Shown: one piece after another, positions 1,276-63,197 of the stretch
How the letters are laid out: each line of letters begins with the position of its first letter
How positions within the stretch are numbered: position 1 is the first letter of the stretch
From: a virus
Lineage: Duplodnaviria > Caudoviricetes
Virus record (IMG/VR): IMGVR_UViG_3300037466_003648
Span: 64,001-128,000 of that record
Strand: one strand, 5' to 3'
Length of the DNA: 64,000 bases
The notes under the pieces: generated by a model
Seen by the model: only the letters and a program-made list of their open reading frames with translations
What the model was told of the DNA's origin: nothing
Databases searched by the model: none
Program-made: the position numbers and the translations under genes

Positions 1276-1593
1276 ATGCGGTCCATCCTGATCAAACGGT
1301 GCGAGGCTTGTGGGGAAACCCGCGGGCTGACCAAGCACCATGTCTATCCGAAGAGCCTGTCCGAAGTATGGGGGCACAAGGTCAAGCAGGTGATGGCACT
1401 GTTGTGCCGCACCTGCCACGACGTCGTGCACTACCGGGGAGGTCGTCGGGTAGCGCGGCTGCAAGGTAAGCACGAGTACGTGCGCCGCTTCTGTGACCCA
1501 CAGATGCAGGCGGTTATAGGATCGTACCGTTTGATCATTCGGCAGTTGGAGCGCGAGTCCCGCGCCCTGCACATCGGGGAGTTGTTGAACTAG
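1276..1593 (+). CDS. HNH endonuclease-like protein
   Basis: CxxC...HHVYP...LCxxCHxxxH pattern. Confidence 0.7.
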   Translation: MRSILIKRCEACGETRGLTKHHVYPKSLSEVWGHKVKQVMALLCRTCHDVVHYRGGRRVARLQGKHEYVRRFCDPQMQAVIGSYRLIIRQLERESRALHIGELLN

Positions 1594-2657: not shown

Positions 2658-4184
2658 TTAGGTCCAGCTCATCTGGGTTGGGAGGTAGACCTCATCCGGC
2701 CGACGGTAGTAGTACTTGCCGCCCACCGCCGCGAAGTCGCCCTGGATCAGGACCGGCTCCGGCACCACGATGCCCGTCTCGGGCATGACGTGGAAGATCG
2801 CGAAGCCGCGGTCGCTCTTGTCGAAGCCGTCCGTGTACTCCGCGTTGCCCCGGCACGCCGAGGGCGTGATGGTCCAACTGTAGGGAGCCGGGGTACCCTT
2901 GTTGAGGACGCTGCCCGTGTAGAGCTGCTGCTTGTGGATGTGACCGCTGGTGCCCGGCATGCCGAACTTGTCGTTGCGGATGTGCATCGCCACAAAGCTG
3001 TCCCAGAACACCACCCAGTTGTTCTTGATCTCTTCCTGCTCGTCCGCCTTGTTGAAGGCGCCCAGGTCCCACTTGCAGTTGACGTTGATCTGCAGATCGC
3101 GAATGCCGAAGAAGTCCGCCCACGTCCAACCGTGGAAGTCGGCCAGCACGGACCCCGTGTAGGGGCTGGCGATCGCCATGTGCTTCTGTACGCGCCACTC
3201 GTGATTGCCCAGGTTCCAAACGATCTCGCTGTCCGGGCAGACCTCACGCGCCGCACGGAAGATCTTGTCCCGCAGGAAGAACATCGACTTCACGATCTCC
3301 GCGTTGCGCGGGTCGACCGTGTACTTGCTGAACTCGTAGCAGTCCGCCTGGTCGCCGTTGAACAGGACGACGTCGGGCTGCATGTCCCGAAGCACTTCCA
3401 GGAACACCCGGTAGACGAAGGGGTCCTGCATCCGGTCGTGGTTGTCGCTGATGTCAACGATTGTGTTGATGGCCGCCTTCGCCGCGCGGGGGTAGAGCAT
3501 CTGGATGGGCTCGATGTCCCGGCGGTAGTACTGACGGAAGTCATCGAGGCTTGCGTGCTTCGCGATCTGCTTCTCGATCATGTGCTGGCTGCGGTGCAGC
3601 TGCAGCCCCGCCTGCCGACGGAACTCCAGGAACGTACCGAAGTGACGGCTCCAGGTGGCCTCGGAGTACTTGCCCTGATGCTGGTACATCGTGCGGCTGA
3701 CGAAGGAGTACTTGTTCTCGCGCTGAACGCGGCGCAAGTCTTCCCGACAGTCGTCCGGCGTAGCATTCGGGTCGAACTTCTTGCCCTCTTCGCTCATGAG
3801 GGCCAGCTGGCGCTGCGTTGGCTTGGGTTCCTTGGGAGGCTTCTCCTCCGTCGAGGGATCCGTGGGCGGCTCCTGATCCAACTGCTGGTACACGGGTTGG
3901 CCGCCAGGAATGTCCAGCTTGGCGTAGTTACCACGCTTCGTCGCGGGCTCGCCTTCACGGGCGATCGGCTGACGGGTGCGCTCGCTTGCGGACTTGCGGT
4001 AGTCGGGATCGATGACCGCGCGCACCGCGTTGCGCTTGATACCCAGTGTATCCTGGATCTGGTTGATCGACTGACCCACCTTCCAGCGCTGGATGATCTC
4101 CACCCGTGTCGCACGGTCGAGCGCCGATCCGTTGGAGGGCTCCAGCTCCTCGTTCGAGACCGCAATGTGCCGGAACTGCAGCAT
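2658..4184 (-). CDS. calcineurin-like metallophosphoesterase with N-terminal HTH-like region
   Basis: DxH (SDNH), GDxxD (GDQAD), GNHE, GHxH (GHIH); GGAGG SD before ATG 4184. Confidence 0.8.
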   Translation of the reverse strand: MLQFRHIAVSNEELEPSNGSALDRATRVEIIQRWKVGQSINQIQDTLGIKRNAVRAVIDPDYRKSASERTRQPIAREGEPATKRGNYAKLDIPGGQPVYQQLDQEPPTDPSTEEKPPKEPKPTQRQLALMSEEGKKFDPNATPDDCREDLRRVQRENKYSFVSRTMYQHQGKYSEATWSRHFGTFLEFRRQAGLQLHRSQHMIEKQIAKHASLDDFRQYYRRDIEPIQMLYPRAAKAAINTIVDISDNHDRMQDPFVYRVFLEVLRDMQPDVVLFNGDQADCYEFSKYTVDPRNAEIVKSMFFLRDKIFRAAREVCPDSEIVWNLGNHEWRVQKHMAIASPYTGSVLADFHGWTWADFFGIRDLQINVNCKWDLGAFNKADEQEEIKNNWVVFWDSFVAMHIRNDKFGMPGTSGHIHKQQLYTGSVLNKGTPAPYSWTITPSACRGNAEYTDGFDKSDRGFAIFHVMPETGIVVPEPVLIQGDFAAVGGKYYYRRPDEVYLPTQMSWT

Positions 4185-4300
4185 GTTCAACCTCCTGGAA
4201 CCACGCCTTATCACAGGCCATGCTCCCAGGACAGATCCACCAAAAACTGCGCAAGCCTAGGTGGGTTGGGACGGTTGGGGTAGTTGGTCGGGCTGTTGCC

Positions 4301-4585
4301 CTACCTGGAGTGGAACACGCTGGCGAACACGGAGGCCAGGTGACACGCACGGCGCAGGTCCACCAACATGACCCAGCCTCCATCGAACTCGTGGAACGTG
4401 AAGGTGAACAACTCCGCTGGAGACGCAAGCTTCTCGATGACGATGTCGCGTGCTCGGTCCCAGCTCATGCTCTTGGTGATCGGGATGGCAAACACGAAGC
4501 CGTTGTCTACCGCTTCCGGTGGGTAGAGCTGGCGCACCAAGGGCTGCAACCGTGCGACCAGCTCGTCAGAGTAGGGCAACTCCAC
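4301..4585 (-). CDS. hypothetical protein
   Basis: ORF track, operon context. Confidence 0.55.
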   Translation of the reverse strand: MELPYSDELVARLQPLVRQLYPPEAVDNGFVFAIPITKSMSWDRARDIVIEKLASPAELFTFTFHEFDGGWVMLVDLRRACHLASVFASVFHSR

Positions 4586-4588
4586 GGA

Positions 4589-4906
4589 CTACCCCTTCAC
4601 CTGATTGGGCACCACGAACGCGTGCTCGAAGCCGAGCTTCGCGATGTAATTGCCGTACGCCATGAGCCCGTTCACCTCTACCAACCCGGCCTCGCCGTGC
4701 ATCTGATGGTACAGTCGTCCCATGGCGTCGACCCCCAACACCAGCACCGTACGACTGGGCGGCAGGGCCAGGTTGACTTGTTGAGGCGCGTTCGTCGCCT
4801 CGTTCTTCGGCTTCCGTTCCTTGCTACGTGACATAACAACTTCCTCCTGTGGGTCGTCTTGCATGACGGACCTCAGTCTACCAGATCCAACAGCCCCAGG
4901 GAACAC
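4589..4906 (-). CDS. hypothetical protein (true start probably internal, MSRSKERK)
   Basis: ORF track; GGAGG-like SD before the internal Met. Confidence 0.55.
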   Translation of the reverse strand: MFPGAVGSGRLRSVMQDDPQEEVVMSRSKERKPKNEATNAPQQVNLALPPSRTVLVLGVDAMGRLYHQMHGEAGLVEVNGLMAYGNYIAKLGFEHAFVVPNQVKG

Positions 4907-4949
4907 GGCAGTACATCTTACTCACCCAGGCAACCGTAAGAATTAACTG

Positions 4950-4979
4950 TTGACACTTCTACATTAACCAATGTAAAGT
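4950..4979 (+). promoter_or_regulatory. sigma70-like promoter with operator-like inverted repeat
   Basis: TTGACA 4950-4955, 18 nt, TAAAGT 4974-4979; TACATT-aacc-AATGTA dyad in the spacer. Confidence 0.65.
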
Positions 4980-5020
4980 GAACTCCAGTTGTTCCCTATC
5001 CGCTATGGAGGTACCCTCGA

Positions 5021-5644
5021 ATGTTTCAGCCGGTTCAACCCCACGTCTTCAAGAACAAGGATCAGCGGCGCCTCCTCGGCGAGAAGCTGGCTCTGGCCCG
5101 CTTGACCAAGGGCTACTCGCAGGCAGAAGCCCTGCGTGCGTCGGGCCTGCTCAACCCCGACGCCAGCCACACCACCCACGAAGGTGGTGTGACCCGCGGC
5201 TTCCTGACCTACGTGGAGGCCGGTACCCGCGGCGTCACGAAGGACCAGCTCTCCGCGCTCGCCAAGCTCTACGGCGTTAGCTATAAGAGCTTGATCGATC
5301 CCGCAGCCCTGACCGCTTCCCAGGTCAAGATGCTCAAGACCCTGCAGCTTGGGATGAAGCATCGGACCGCGCCGACCGGCACCAAGAAGTCCACGTCCAT
5401 CGGGGCGGGACGTACCCACAAGGTGATGGCGACCGCCAACGGGCGTCGCACCCAGCGCCAGGCGACGGTACCCCAAGCAGCGCCGCAGCATGGCATCACC
5501 CCGGCGGACATCGCCATGCTCGATGTGGTCCGCGACTGCTCTGAGCCCGAGAAGGTTTGGTTGCGGGATGGGCTGATCAAGCTCAAGGACCGCATGCGGT
5601 CGACGGTCGCGTCACCCACCAAGCAGTTGGTCGGCACCCGCTAA
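5021..5644 (+). CDS. XRE-family HTH transcriptional regulator
   Basis: LGEKLALARLTKGYSQAE...YVEAGTR...LSALAKLYGVS pattern. Confidence 0.8.
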   Translation: MFQPVQPHVFKNKDQRRLLGEKLALARLTKGYSQAEALRASGLLNPDASHTTHEGGVTRGFLTYVEAGTRGVTKDQLSALAKLYGVSYKSLIDPAALTASQVKMLKTLQLGMKHRTAPTGTKKSTSIGAGRTHKVMATANGRRTQRQATVPQAAPQHGITPADIAMLDVVRDCSEPEKVWLRDGLIKLKDRMRSTVASPTKQLVGTR

Positions 5645-5650
5645 TCCACC

Positions 5651-5682
5651 GGGCTCGGGAGAGAATCCCGAGCCCTTCTTCT
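5651..5682 (+). terminator. intrinsic terminator
   Basis: GGGCTCGGGA-gagaa-TCCCGAGCCC followed by TTCTTCTT. Confidence 0.75.
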
Positions 5683-5693
5683 TAGGAGGCTTC

Positions 5694-6038
5694 ATGACGC
5701 AGACCTTACAGTTCAAGCGTCTCGAAGTCGTAGGGGCACGGTTCCAGGCTGGGGTTGACTGGGCAGCGCTCCGAACGGGTGACCGGTTGGAGTTGATCCC
5801 GGAACCAACCAACGAGGTTGACAGCACAGCCGTGGCGGTCTATGCTGGCGCGACCCGGATCGGTTACCTGGCTCGGGAACGTGCCGAGATGTTCAGTCCT
5901 CTGTTGATTCACGGCTACATCAAAGCACGCGTCCAGCTTGTTCAGATCGATCCGTGGGTCGAGCGGCGACGCTTCACCCCCATCTTGATCGACTGTGAGA
6001 TCGAGAAAGTTGCTACGCCTACCCCCTTACCTGGCTAA
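5694..6038 (+). CDS. HIRAN domain protein
   Basis: VVGARF...LELIPEPTNEVDSTAVAV...IGYLAR matches the HIRAN pattern. Confidence 0.85.
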   Translation: MTQTLQFKRLEVVGARFQAGVDWAALRTGDRLELIPEPTNEVDSTAVAVYAGATRIGYLARERAEMFSPLLIHGYIKARVQLVQIDPWVERRRFTPILIDCEIEKVATPTPLPG

Positions 6039-8175: not shown

Positions 8176-8496
8176 ATGCTCAAGAAGACCCTGCTCGCTG
8201 TCGTCGCTGCGCTGTTCATGACGGGCTGTGCCAACGCCTTCAACCGCGTTGACCGTACGTTCTTCCAGAACTCGGCGGGCGACTACCACCTCGTCCAGTA
8301 CACCCTGGCAGGAAATGTGGACTACTGGGTCCACAACATCAAGGTGACCCAGGAGCACGAGACCGATGGCGTGTTCTTCTTCCTCGCCGACGGTACGATG
8401 GTGGAGATCCAGGGTCCGGTGACCAGCGTCCGCCTCAAGCACGGCTTCGACGGCCCCGATCGGTTGCCCGCGAACCTGCTGGCTCCGGCCAAGTAG
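8176..8496 (+). CDS. putative lipoprotein
   Basis: signal peptide ending LFMTGC (lipobox-like). Confidence 0.7.
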   Translation: MLKKTLLAVVAALFMTGCANAFNRVDRTFFQNSAGDYHLVQYTLAGNVDYWVHNIKVTQEHETDGVFFFLADGTMVEIQGPVTSVRLKHGFDGPDRLPANLLAPAK

Positions 8497-8504
8497 GCGC
8501 ACCC

Positions 8505-9611
8505 ATGAGCGCCAGCTACCCCGAGAACCTCGTCGAGCTTGAAGCCTGGTTGAAGGACCGGGACCGCGAGTACTACGAGAAGGATGCCCCTACTGTCAGC
8601 GACGCGGTCTACGACGCCGCCACCAGCTACTGGGAGCGCATGGCGGGCAAGACCTGGGAGGTGCTGGGCAAGCCCTCCGAGCAGTTGACCCGCATCCCGC
8701 ACGTCGTGCCGATGCTCTCGCTCTCGAAAGAGACGGAGATCGAAGGCGTCGTCGCTTGGATTCCCGACCCCGACGAAGTCTACGTGCTGCTGCCCAAGAT
8801 CGACGGCATGGCAGGTCGCCTCAAGTACGATGCGGGTCAGCTCGCCAACGCGGTGTCTCGTGGTGACGGGTCCGTGGGTGAGAGCATCCTGCACAGCCTC
8901 AAGCTGCCGCTTGCCTCGGGTCACATCCCCGACGTGCTGCCCGACCCGCCACCGGGCGATCTCTACCCCGGTGGTGAGGTCTACCTGCCCAAGGAGCTGT
9001 TCAAGCTCGTGGGTGGTGCCAACCCCCGCAACGTGGGCGCTGGTCTGGTCCGTCGTCAGACACCGCACCCGCACCAGGCGCATCTGCGCTTCGTCGCCTA
9101 CCACCTGGTGGACCCGACCGGTCATGCGGGCGAGACGTACCTGGAGCAGCTGGAGTGGCTGCGCTGCCAGGGCTTCGAGATTCCCCCGCACGCGACCATC
9201 CATGGGGCGGACTTCCAGCACCTGACGCTCGACGCGCTGCACCCCGACCAGTGGCTCAACCCCGGCGAAGTGCTGCCCTACGAGATCGACGGCGTCGTCA
9301 TCACCTTGAACAACCTCGCCAAGCGCGCGGCGTTGGGCGAGACGGGCCACCACCCGCGCTGGGCGTGTGCCGTCAAGTTCGCGACGGAGATCGCCGTGAC
9401 CAAGCTGATCACCGTAGAGTGGAGCGCCACCCGTACGGGTGTCGTGGTCCCCACCGCGGTGTTCGAGGCGGTCAACTTGTGCGGCACCATCGTGACCCGT
9501 GCCACATTGCACAACCTGGAGCACTACCAGAAGTTGGGTGTGCGTCCGGGGGATATGGTGAAGGTCAGGAAGGCGAACGACATCATACCCGAGCTGATTG
9601 GCAAGGCGTGA
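8505..9611 (+). CDS. ligA: NAD+-dependent DNA ligase, N-terminal half (Ia, adenylation and OB domains)
   Basis: YY...SDAVYD, PKIDG active-site Lys, SRGDG, YEIDGVVI, PRWACAVKF, RATLHN; ends after KVRKANDIIP. Confidence 0.9.
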   Translation: MSASYPENLVELEAWLKDRDREYYEKDAPTVSDAVYDAATSYWERMAGKTWEVLGKPSEQLTRIPHVVPMLSLSKETEIEGVVAWIPDPDEVYVLLPKIDGMAGRLKYDAGQLANAVSRGDGSVGESILHSLKLPLASGHIPDVLPDPPPGDLYPGGEVYLPKELFKLVGGANPRNVGAGLVRRQTPHPHQAHLRFVAYHLVDPTGHAGETYLEQLEWLRCQGFEIPPHATIHGADFQHLTLDALHPDQWLNPGEVLPYEIDGVVITLNNLAKRAALGETGHHPRWACAVKFATEIAVTKLITVEWSATRTGVVVPTAVFEAVNLCGTIVTRATLHNLEHYQKLGVRPGDMVKVRKANDIIPELIGKA

Positions 9612-9766
9612 TGGGTGTGGTCCTTTGTTTCTTCGGGTTCGTCTTGCTGCTGGCCGACCTCGACAACATCCTACAGCATGACTACTTCTGGGGCTTGGTT
9701 GGCCTGGGTGTGATGATCGTGGGCTACGTCATCGACGCCTACGAAGATTGGAGTATGACCTCGTGA
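9611..9766 (+). CDS. small two-TM membrane protein between the ligase halves
   Basis: TGATG overlap with the upstream stop, GTGA overlap with the downstream start; 51 aa with two hydrophobic stretches. Confidence 0.65.
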   Translation: MGVVLCFFGFVLLLADLDNILQHDYFWGLVGLGVMIVGYVIDAYEDWSMTS

Positions 9767-10641
9767 CCGTTTCGTTGGATCTCCCCTATCCGCCGACCTG
9801 CCCCAGCTGCAAGCACCCGACCGTCGTGTCGCTGCCGCACCTGGTCTGCCCCAACCCCTCGTGCCGGGCCAAGCTCGTGTTCCTGTTGGCACACGTCGCC
9901 AAGCGCCCGAACTTCGACATCGGCACGCTGGGCGAAGAGGTGGCCGAAGCCCTTGTCGCGTCGGGCTTGGTCAAGAACCTGTACGATCTCTTCACCCTCG
10001 AAGAGGCCAAGGTTGCGTCGATCCCCTTCGGCAAGGGCACGTACGGCAGCGTGCGGGCCAAGAAGTTGGTCGACAACATCGACAAAGCACGCGAGAAGCC
10101 CTGGAACGTGGTGCTGCACTCGCTGGGCATCCCCGGTCTGGGCGAGCCCGAGTGCGACATCATCGCCGCCAAGTACTCGCTCTGGGATCTCGCAGTCGCG
10201 ATGAACCCCGCGCAGCTCAAGGTCGAGCTGATGACCCTCAAGGGCATGGGCGAGAAGACCGCGGTGGCACTGGCCGAGTGGTTGAAGATCAACCGGGACT
10301 GGCTCGTCCAGTACGAACTGACGGAGGCTGGTGGACGCGCAACGGGTGGTCTCATCACGCTGCTCAACACGCGTCCCGAGGTCATCGACAGTCGCACACA
10401 GCCCTTGCTGGGCTACAAGATCGTGCTGACCGGCAGTTTCAGCACCAAGAGCGCTCGCAGCGACTACGAGAAGCGCCTGAAGAAGCTGGGTGCCGAGGTG
10501 CCCGGCAGCGTCAGCGTCAACACCACCTACCTCGTGGCCGGTGCCAACGTCGGCGCCAACAAGACCGACGCGGCCAAGAAGCACGGCGTCAACATCATCG
10601 ACGAGGCGACGCTGGTCGCCCTGCTGAAGGAGCACGAGTAA
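9763..10641 (+). CDS. ligA: NAD+-dependent DNA ligase, C-terminal half (Zn finger, HhH, BRCT)
   Basis: CPSC...CPNPSC, FDIGTLGE, LGIPGLGE, VLTGSF...VSVNTTYLVAG; GGAG SD before GTG 9763. Confidence 0.88.
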   Translation: MTVSLDLPYPPTCPSCKHPTVVSLPHLVCPNPSCRAKLVFLLAHVAKRPNFDIGTLGEEVAEALVASGLVKNLYDLFTLEEAKVASIPFGKGTYGSVRAKKLVDNIDKAREKPWNVVLHSLGIPGLGEPECDIIAAKYSLWDLAVAMNPAQLKVELMTLKGMGEKTAVALAEWLKINRDWLVQYELTEAGGRATGGLITLLNTRPEVIDSRTQPLLGYKIVLTGSFSTKSARSDYEKRLKKLGAEVPGSVSVNTTYLVAGANVGANKTDAAKKHGVNIIDEATLVALLKEHE

Positions 10642-10850
10642 TGCCCACCAACAAAGCCGAGACGCCCGAACCGAAGCCGACTCACGGCACACCGGTTGTG
10701 CGGATCTTCCGCGAGAAGCAGACCCTGATCGTCGAGGCCAACGAGATGCTCGTCGACCGCGATGCCTTGGGCCAGCTCGCGGGCAAGATGCCCGACCTCT
10801 ACCGACACCTGTCGTCCTACGGGATCGACACCGTCGAGCTGCGGGTGTAA
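10641..10850 (+). CDS. hypothetical protein
   Basis: TAATG coupling to the ligase C-half; 69 aa. Confidence 0.6.
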   Translation: MPTNKAETPEPKPTHGTPVVRIFREKQTLIVEANEMLVDRDALGQLAGKMPDLYRHLSSYGIDTVELRV

Positions 10851-10852
10851 CC

Positions 10853-11425
10853 ATGGCCGAAGTCGAAGCCAAGTTCCATCTGACGGACATCCAGGTTGGC
10901 GAGATCACCCGCATCCTGGGCCGACCCAAGGCTCATCTTGTCCAGACGGACACCTACTTCGACACGCCGAAGGGCTTGAGCTTGCGCATCCGCGAGGAGC
11001 GTAACCTCGCGCTGGGCAGCCACACCGCCTACCTTACCGCCAAGAGCGTGAGCGACCACACCGGCGGCATCCGTGCCGTCGAGGAGATCGAACCCGTCAT
11101 CGACCCCGACGACATCGACGTGTGGACCCGCATGTTCACGAACCTGATGGGCTTTCCTAAGGACGTGACGGTGGAGAAGCAGCGTGCGGAGTACGAGATC
11201 GACCGCGAGAGCGGTGGCATTGCCAAGCTCGTGCTCGACTTCATCTCCCAGCTGGGCCACTTCTGCGAGATCGAGATCGTCACCGAGGCATCCGACACGT
11301 TGTCGTGCGAAGCAGCCACTACCGAGCTGCAGAAGCTCATCAAGGAGCTGGGGCTGAGTCACCTGACCCCTGCCACGGGCTCGTACCGCTACATGCTCAA
11401 GCAGAAGGTGAAGGAGGGTGCATGA
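10853..11425 (+). CDS. CYTH-domain (class IV adenylate cyclase / triphosphatase family) protein
   Basis: N-terminal ExExK (EVEAK), QTDTYF, LRIR, VEKQR, LGHFCEIE. Confidence 0.85.
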   Translation: MAEVEAKFHLTDIQVGEITRILGRPKAHLVQTDTYFDTPKGLSLRIREERNLALGSHTAYLTAKSVSDHTGGIRAVEEIEPVIDPDDIDVWTRMFTNLMGFPKDVTVEKQRAEYEIDRESGGIAKLVLDFISQLGHFCEIEIVTEASDTLSCEAATTELQKLIKELGLSHLTPATGSYRYMLKQKVKEGA

Positions 11426-11763
11426 CGTCTCTCCGCTTCGGTGTGGCGTTCGCCGTGACGTTGCTGGTCAGCCAGCTGCTCCTCTCGGCCTCGGTCGGCG
11501 CCCGTCAGCCGTACCATCCTGATGTTTCGATGCCGGGTTGGACACTCAACAACCACCCCGGCGGTGGTCCCTACGTCTCGATCTTCGAGCAGTGCCCGAA
11601 CTTCGACCTGTTGCTGGTACACGATCGCTTCGGCATCGTCGAGCCCCGACCGGGTTGGTGGTACGCGGGTCAGGACGAACACGTCCCTGGTTACTTGATC
11701 TACCGCCGACCGCAGAACAAGAGCTTCCAACAGATCTGGACGGTCGATCCGTCCCCGCACTAG
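11422..11763 (+). CDS. secreted or membrane hypothetical protein
   Basis: GGAGG SD, ATGA overlap, hydrophobic N-terminus. Confidence 0.65.
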   Translation: MTSLRFGVAFAVTLLVSQLLLSASVGARQPYHPDVSMPGWTLNNHPGGGPYVSIFEQCPNFDLLLVHDRFGIVEPRPGWWYAGQDEHVPGYLIYRRPQNKSFQQIWTVDPSPH

Positions 11764-11771
11764 GAGATCCA

Positions 11772-12314
11772 ATGCCCGACACGAACTACAGCGGCTACTA
11801 CCAGCACTACAAGGGTGGCTACTACCAGCGGCAGCTCTGCGGTAACAGCTGGACGGTGCTCGACACCACCTCCGGGAAGGAGCTGGCGATCTACAGCGCC
11901 GTTAACGAGGACGAGTACAAGCACGCCGCGTTCGCTCGTCCCGTCGAAGAGTTCGAAGGCACGGTCGAGGTGGATGGCAAGACCGTCCCGCGCTTCCGTC
12001 TGATCGGAGCCGACGAGAAGGTCCGCGTCGTCTGGTACACCTACATGTGCCCGATGTGCGGAGACCAAGCGCTGCCGGGCAAGTTCAGCTCGAAGCAGAT
12101 CTTGCTTGACTCTCGCGAGGCGCTCACTCTCGACGAGTTCTCGTGCTACAGCTGCCGCATGGACTTCGAAGAGTCCGTTGGCGAGGGCTGGCGCGAAGCC
12201 CAGTCGTTCTCGCGCAACATCCGCGAGAACTCGATCAGCGTCGTGCCTCCCCTGGTGGCACGCTGGCGCAAGGACATCGAGACCGTCGCCCGTGTAGCAC
12301 CGACCGACGAGTAG
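11772..12314 (+). CDS. DUF1653-like domain protein with CxxC motifs
   Basis: YQHYKGGYY...IY...FARPVEEFEG...RF pattern. Confidence 0.7.
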   Translation: MPDTNYSGYYQHYKGGYYQRQLCGNSWTVLDTTSGKELAIYSAVNEDEYKHAAFARPVEEFEGTVEVDGKTVPRFRLIGADEKVRVVWYTYMCPMCGDQALPGKFSSKQILLDSREALTLDEFSCYSCRMDFEESVGEGWREAQSFSRNIRENSISVVPPLVARWRKDIETVARVAPTDE

Positions 12315-62762: not shown

Positions 62763-63197
62763 ATGTCTGAGATGTCCGAGATTCCCATGGCCGAGCAGCT
62801 GGCAACGCCGGATGAGGTCATGATCGTGACCACCGAAGACTTTCTGCAGATGATGAAGGATCACTTCGAGAAGGTGCCCTTCGTTGCCCTGAACCTGACG
62901 CGGTCGCAGACCATGTCGCCTGCTGACGGCGAAGAAGGCTACACAATGGCGACCCTGGTGGCCGTGGCCTTCGAGCGCGAAGAGATCACGATGGTCCCTG
63001 GTGCGATGTCAATGCTGACCAACCACTCCCCGCTGGTCGTTGGTGCCGAAGCCGACGACACCGACATCCAGACCATGATCGACCAGGAGCTGTACGCCAA
63101 AGTCCCCGGCGCCATGAAGGTGCTGGAGGCCGACGTGCCCCAGCAGCTGCAGAGCCACCCGGAGCTGCCGCCCGGCACCACGGTGATGCAGTTCTAG
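62763..63197 (+). CDS. acidic hypothetical protein
   Basis: AAAGGA SD after an AT-rich promoter region. Confidence 0.7.
   Translation: MSEMSEIPMAEQLATPDEVMIVTTEDFLQMMKDHFEKVPFVALNLTRSQTMSPADGEEGYTMATLVAVAFEREEITMVPGAMSMLTNHSPLVVGAEADDTDIQTMIDQELYAKVPGAMKVLEADVPQQLQSHPELPPGTTVMQF

Follow-up and report, generated by a model that had tools for sequence, protein, structure and literature searches.

Phage T5 carries its NAD+-dependent DNA ligase as two genes, ligA (323 aa) and ligB (259 aa), which are separated by a 202-bp, promoter-bearing spacer. The C-terminus of T5 LigA (...VIPCIVERVYD) directly follows the OB fold, LigB starts (MKIEIPTQCPSC) at the zinc finger, and the two are named subunits A and B in papers (PMC3632103, PMC4319617, PMC6813398). 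In PDB entries 9HU3 and 9I5I, one chain matches T5 LigA (8e-104) and a second matches LigB (3.8e-80). A heterodimeric phage LigA is already established through this T5-like enzyme, and the premise in an initial annotation of the DNA studied here that LigA, as in bacteria, is a single chain does not hold for phages. PHROGs likewise contains an N-only (phrog_3359) and a C-only (phrog_3498) family, both of which are matched by the halves described below. The nrdA gene of Aeromonas phage Aeh1 is said, in 2007 work by Friedrich and colleagues, to exist as genes in pieces (nrdA-a / mobE / nrdA-b) owing to a free-standing homing endonuclease. Split inteins together with a free-standing endonuclease have also been described in fractured genes, one of them a phage DNA ligase gene (Dassa et al. 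2009, PMC2677866).

We analysed a window of 64,000 nucleotides, corresponding to bases 64001-128000 of a complete IMG/VR record of an uncultured phage, which is 205,180 bp long and has direct terminal repeats and a G+C content of 63%. At the ligase locus, three + strand ORFs lie head to tail in three different frames, with a successive shift of -1:

8505-9611, + strand: ligase N-half, 368 aa, with domain Ia, adenylation (NTase) domain and OB fold; stop TGA 9609-9611
9607-9611 and 9762-9766, + strand: copies of CGTGA, one at the junction of the N-half and the 51-codon ORF and one at the junction of the 51-codon ORF and the C-half
9611-9766, + strand: lodger ORF of 51 codons, from ATG 9611 to TGA 9764-9766, filling the gap between the halves exactly
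9750-9753, + strand: GGAG ribosome-binding site of the C-half, inside the 3' end of the 51-codon ORF and 9 nt before GTG 9763
9763-10641, + strand: ligase C-half, 292 aa, from GTG 9763 to TAA 10639-10641, with zinc finger, HhH and BRCT

The N-half and the 51-codon ORF overlap at TGATG, and the 51-codon ORF and the C-half overlap at GTGA. Both overlaps, the N-half stop and the GGAG before the C-half had been reported in the initial annotation, and our reading of the ORFs and the sequence confirmed them. In-frame alternative starts exist at GTG 9608 for the 51-codon ORF and at TTG 9748 for the C-half, the latter being the start chosen by the public gene call (P0001, 297 aa). We also observed the C-half stop to overlap the ATG of the next ORF (TAATG 10639-10643). 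Because such tight overlaps are the rule across this gene block, the double translational coupling that had been raised as a special argument for the arrangement is not specific to the ligase. No promoter or terminator was found inside the insert.

The 69-aa ORF that begins in the TAATG overlap (10641-10850) is followed by genes for a CYTH-domain protein (10853-11425; 1.5e-13) and a DUF1653 protein (11538-12314; 2.7e-10). Just upstream of the ligase lies a 106-aa ORF (8176-8496) with a lipoprotein-type signal (…LFMTGC) and no Pfam match. The only two Pfam HNH matches of the genome, at window positions 1300-1434 and genome positions 62793-62906 (about 1.1 kb before the window), are 7-10 kb upstream of the split ligase. 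The GenBank phage collection contained no Megablast match to the region, searches of viral contigs with each half alone and with a C-half alignment recovered no close kin, and the sole match in the genome contigs search was a bacterial LigA with 29% identity.

Pfam and structure alignments confirmed the proposed division of domains between Ia, adenylation and OB fold on one side and zinc finger, HhH and BRCT on the other. The N-half matched DNA_ligase_aden (PF01653; 1.2e-33) and DNA_ligase_OB (PF03120; 4.7e-22), aligned to residues 4-388 of E. coli LigA (2OWO/4GLX) and stopped 8 residues past the conserved IIPE motif. The C-half begins 12 residues ahead of the first cysteine of a four-cysteine zinc finger (C13, C16, C29, and C34), matched positions 389-655 of 656 in phrog_3869 (E 1.3e-48) and BRCT in Pfam (1.4e-08), and aligned continuously with residues 400-660 of T. 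filiformis LigA (1DGS; 3.5e-26) and with residues 404-669 of E. coli LigA (2OWO). Pfam HhH models missed the C-half in the window and matched its relatives (PF14520). Relative to a normal LigA, all that is lacking is the short linker joining the OB fold to the zinc finger (about E. coli residues 392-400), and neither half has an obvious added docking element.

The adenylated lysine is K98 in K98-I-D-G (KxDG) and is invariant across the clade of related ligases described below. K98, R119, E158, D262, and K291 are invariant in 12 split N-halves, as are Y23, Y24, D33, Y36, and D37 of domain Ia. The latter five align with E. coli Y22, H23, D32, Y35, and D36, with His23 replaced by Tyr; we take these E. 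coli residues to be those of domain Ia that bind the NMN part of NAD+. Wherever the stretch is present in C-halves, the four zinc-finger cysteines are conserved. Between them, the two halves contain the complete domain set and catalytic residues of an NAD+-dependent ligase. We found neither a second LigA nor an ATP-dependent ligase in the complete 205-kb genome. Motif IV (9298-9306, N-half residues 265-267) reads DGVVIT, with T267 opposite Lys290 of E. coli LigA, and the whole clade has Thr, Ala or Met at this position. Because the fused members P0047 and P0049 have this change too, it is a clade trait unlinked to the split.

The same break between OB fold and zinc finger was found in a dozen relatives, as the initial annotation had suggested checking. 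Stand-alone C-halves numbered 12 in a large protein collection (41-71% identity, 260-300 aa), and each starts a few residues before the first zinc-finger cysteine at the same LPYPxxCPxC. The collection also contained about ten or more stand-alone N-halves (44-57% identity, 356-373 aa), which end 5-14 residues past IIPx, the closing motif of the OB fold. Five metagenome loci (L002-L006) contain both halves side by side. We read the junction DNA for these five loci; the nearest relatives (P0002, P0003, P0197, P0198, and P0047) are known as proteins alone. The halves abut via a TGATG overlap in L002 and L004, an ATGA overlap in L003 and a GTGA overlap in L005. Among the split loci, L002, L003, and L005 had pN of 0.11-0.23 versus pS of 0.70-0.80 in both halves; since silent sites are saturated, we give pN and pS rather than dN/dS ratios. 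Recurrence of this break in a dozen diverged relatives, together with purifying selection on both halves, shows that the split is no error, and its reading as a genuine multi-gene arrangement is well supported by these sequence comparisons. More distant N-only LigA proteins (P0059, P0080, and P0116) also end right after the OB fold. P0059 and P0080 are each placed next to a one-piece form in the tree, and the same cut may thus have been made in further lineages.

These comparisons also bear on whether the window holds an assembly error or a dead or dying gene, a disused ligase broken by an insertion. Limitation of the split with this particular insert to the present phage population would fit such a history. 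However, every catalytic and zinc-binding residue is kept in both halves, the gene pair is the sole ligase of a complete genome, and the split relatives retain 70-82% protein identity despite saturated silent sites. In addition, identical N-half and 51-aa proteins were called on 6 contigs, and L002 and L004 share one sequence across the split although they were recovered from separate metagenomes. We therefore regard a decayed or misassembled gene as very unlikely. A two-chain ligase is the best reading of these sequences. The proposed heterodimeric LigA is most probably correct, but the T5 enzyme is a precedent for it.

The slot between the halves varies in content. It is empty in four loci (L002-L005) and filled in L006 and L079. 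In L006, a 1.24-kb insert (4753-6000) opens with an ORF of EndoVII/HNH type (phrog_1035; 3.4e-10) whose start overlaps the N-half stop at ATGA. This nuclease ORF is apparently frameshifted, with one base missing before its ...LCMNCN... HNH-like end, and appears to be either a pseudogene or the product of an assembly slip. Three small ORFs without a family match follow it. L079 (3989-6486) lies on an unrelated viral contig of 108 kb that is AT-rich (33% G+C), and its LigA is cut at the same linker, with adenylation domain and OB fold followed by an HNH_3 gene (6.6e-11) and then by zinc finger, HhH and BRCT; L079 is an independent case. Because both loci carry free-standing nuclease genes there, the linker between OB fold and zinc finger is a recurrent landing site for such genes. 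By inference from L006 and L079, the split in the clade of the present phage was likely created by a nuclease insertion in an ancestor. No nuclease gene lies between the halves of the present phage.

We surveyed the best 80 IMG/VR LigA loci (29-35% identity). One-piece ligases accounted for 74 of the 80, of which 72 came from an automatic count and two (L058 and L083) from reading the frame, which continues through the C-half. In L026, L042, and L051 (about 4000-5110; high-GC viral contigs), the N-half ORF ends 8-11 codons past the OB fold, and no C-half was found within 4 kb downstream. The partner half of these three may be elsewhere or lost.

The 51-codon ORF has no match in Pfam or PHROGs and no nuclease signature. 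Among 5.8 billion proteins its sole match was itself, on 6 contigs, and its neighbours in the ESM Atlas scored 0.84, which is chance level. The genome contains no paralogue or repeated DNA copy of it, and it lacks terminal inverted repeats. With no homologue, its coding status rests on composition, the exact fit to the gap and the gene call. Its codon usage (0.552 bits/codon) is close to the mean of in-frame genes (0.557) and is reached by 0.08% of off-frame windows, and its GC3 is 0.78 versus 0.58 and 0.26 in the alternative frames. The predicted protein contains six acidic residues, no Lys or Arg, and hydrophobic runs at residues 1-15 and 25-41 (~15 and 17 residues). A single-sequence AlphaFold2 model is one continuous helix over residues 2-50 (pLDDT 87). 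Given its phage-like codon usage, the ORF probably encodes a real mini-protein that is helical, hydrophobic and acidic. Its earlier description as a two-TM protein stands as far as a small hydrophobic protein is concerned; a two-pass membrane topology is plausible, but the hydrophobic runs are short, Lys and Arg are absent and the model is a single helix.

We considered whether this mini-protein is a functional third component of the ligase, for example one that bridges the halves or helps them assemble, or one that anchors the replication and repair machinery at the membrane. The ORF has translational coupling at both ends and contains the ribosome-binding site of the C-half, its phage-like codon usage implies that it is not a fresh arrival, and the helix is predicted with confidence, all of which would suit such a role. 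Against it, the ORF is absent from all relatives with readable DNA (L002-L006), it is without a homologue anywhere, and the tight overlaps are general in the gene block. For the nearest relatives, known as proteins, the presence of the ORF could be judged only indirectly, from the lack of any recorded homologue. The two-chain ligase does without the mini-protein in four relatives, where no gene separates the halves. We therefore consider a working third part quite unlikely and the mini-protein most likely an unrelated passenger, known from the present phage only. The three-gene arrangement read in the initial annotation is real and not an error, but it does not form a unit that relatives conserve.

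The two junctions both contain CGTGA. Deleting one copy together with the intervening 150 nt leaves ...GCGTGACC..., with a GTGA stop/start overlap as in L005, which fits an insertion into an older, already split two-gene junction. The repeat could well be chance because four of its five bases are fixed by the GTG/TGA overlap of both junctions, and it is too short to serve as proof of insertion. The lodger gene is the only new element at this locus.

We also weighed whether a single chain is restored across the 153-nt insert by an intron, by trans-splicing of a split intein, by programmed frameshifting or by ribosome bypass. Phage genes fractured by split inteins do exist, one of them a DNA ligase (PMC2677866), and the C-half is in the -1 frame in every abutting relative. 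However, there is no room for intein halves, as the N profile of the clade ends at E. coli residue 391 and the C profile starts at residue 401. The insert gave no Rfam match at E <= 1, folds no better than shuffled sequences (z = +1.22) and itself reads as a coding gene; no slippery heptamer is shared before the stops, and L006 has a multi-gene insert of 1.24 kb at the same site. For want of an Rfam match, intein room, a fold and a heptamer, we rejected intron, intein, frameshift and bypass alike, and restoration of one chain is extremely improbable.

In a quick maximum-likelihood tree, the clade of the present phage has 14 members. The present phage groups (SH-aLRT 99) with the split P0197 and P0198 and with P0047, a one-piece ligase of 658 aa that is 57% and 59% identical to the two halves. 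P0049, a second one-piece form, lies elsewhere within the clade. On this tree, the split could be ancestral and undone twice or could have arisen several times; the former needs fewer events. Profiles of the clade scored 5.7e-69 (N-half) and 4.3e-36 (C-half) against the bacterial 2OWO and 5.3e-42 and 9.8e-12 against 9HU3. T5 falls outside the clade on a long branch, and the clade sits among one-piece ligases, which separate it from T5. Because the clade is closer to one-piece bacterial LigA, its split arose separately from that of T5, and neither the profile scores nor the tree pointed to common descent with the split genes of T5 (Demerecviridae).

These findings support a model in which one transcript would yield two polypeptides that together serve as the only DNA ligase of the phage. 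The first chain would supply domain Ia, the adenylation domain and the OB fold, and the second would supply the zinc finger, HhH and BRCT. We infer that the two join non-covalently, probably on nicked DNA, to form a normal NAD+-dependent ligase clamp, like T5 LigA and LigB. OB fold and zinc finger are separated at their flexible linker, where a nuclease insertion in an ancestor of the clade probably made the split. Later loss of the nuclease in most members would have left the overlapping stop and start codons, and in the present phage the slot would now be held by the 51-codon gene, translated between the halves. On the sequence data at hand, we consider this whole account, comprising a two-chain NAD+ ligase from one transcript, a nuclease-made split and a passenger mini-gene, to be very likely. 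An alternative in which the linker is a general, repeatedly used slot for mobile genes that arrive and leave, with the mini-protein a novel type of lodger kept for an action on the ligase chains such as tethering them or timing their assembly, seems quite unlikely to us.

With the present locus, the two-piece NAD+ ligases known from phages are joined by a further clade, which is independent, diverse and environmental. It strengthens the view that the LigA clamp needs no covalent link between OB fold and zinc finger and that selfish genes insert preferentially into this linker. The nesting of one-piece members in a split clade suggests that the state can flip in both directions. For annotation, N-only and C-only LigA proteins in phage genomes that are labelled "partial" would be subunits and not fragments. 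The mini-protein is an orphan.

Compared with the known systems, the locus resembles one-piece bacterial LigA (E. coli 2OWO and T. filiformis 1DGS) in its domains and catalytic residues, and these are its nearest relatives in sequence, but it encodes two polypeptides where the bacteria have one. It shares with the split-intein ligase a phage ligase gene in two parts with a foreign gene between them; no intein halves are present here, so the chains cannot rejoin by protein splicing. As in Aeh1 nrdA, an essential enzyme of DNA metabolism is divided at a site that tolerates the cut, which would by analogy yield two functional chains, and in the relatives L006 and L079 a nuclease gene sits exactly at the cut. 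Unlike the Aeh1 case, the lodger of the present phage is not a nuclease, and most members of the clade have an empty slot. The likeness to T5 ligA and ligB consists of two adjacent genes in the same order, cut in the same linker between OB fold and zinc finger, and the T5 pair is the replication ligase of its phage, as the present pair appears to be from its sequence. The lineage is distinct from that of T5, and overlapping genes with a 51-codon ORF stand here in place of the 202-bp promoter spacer. By this analogy, the present enzyme would work as that of T5 does, outside its lineage.
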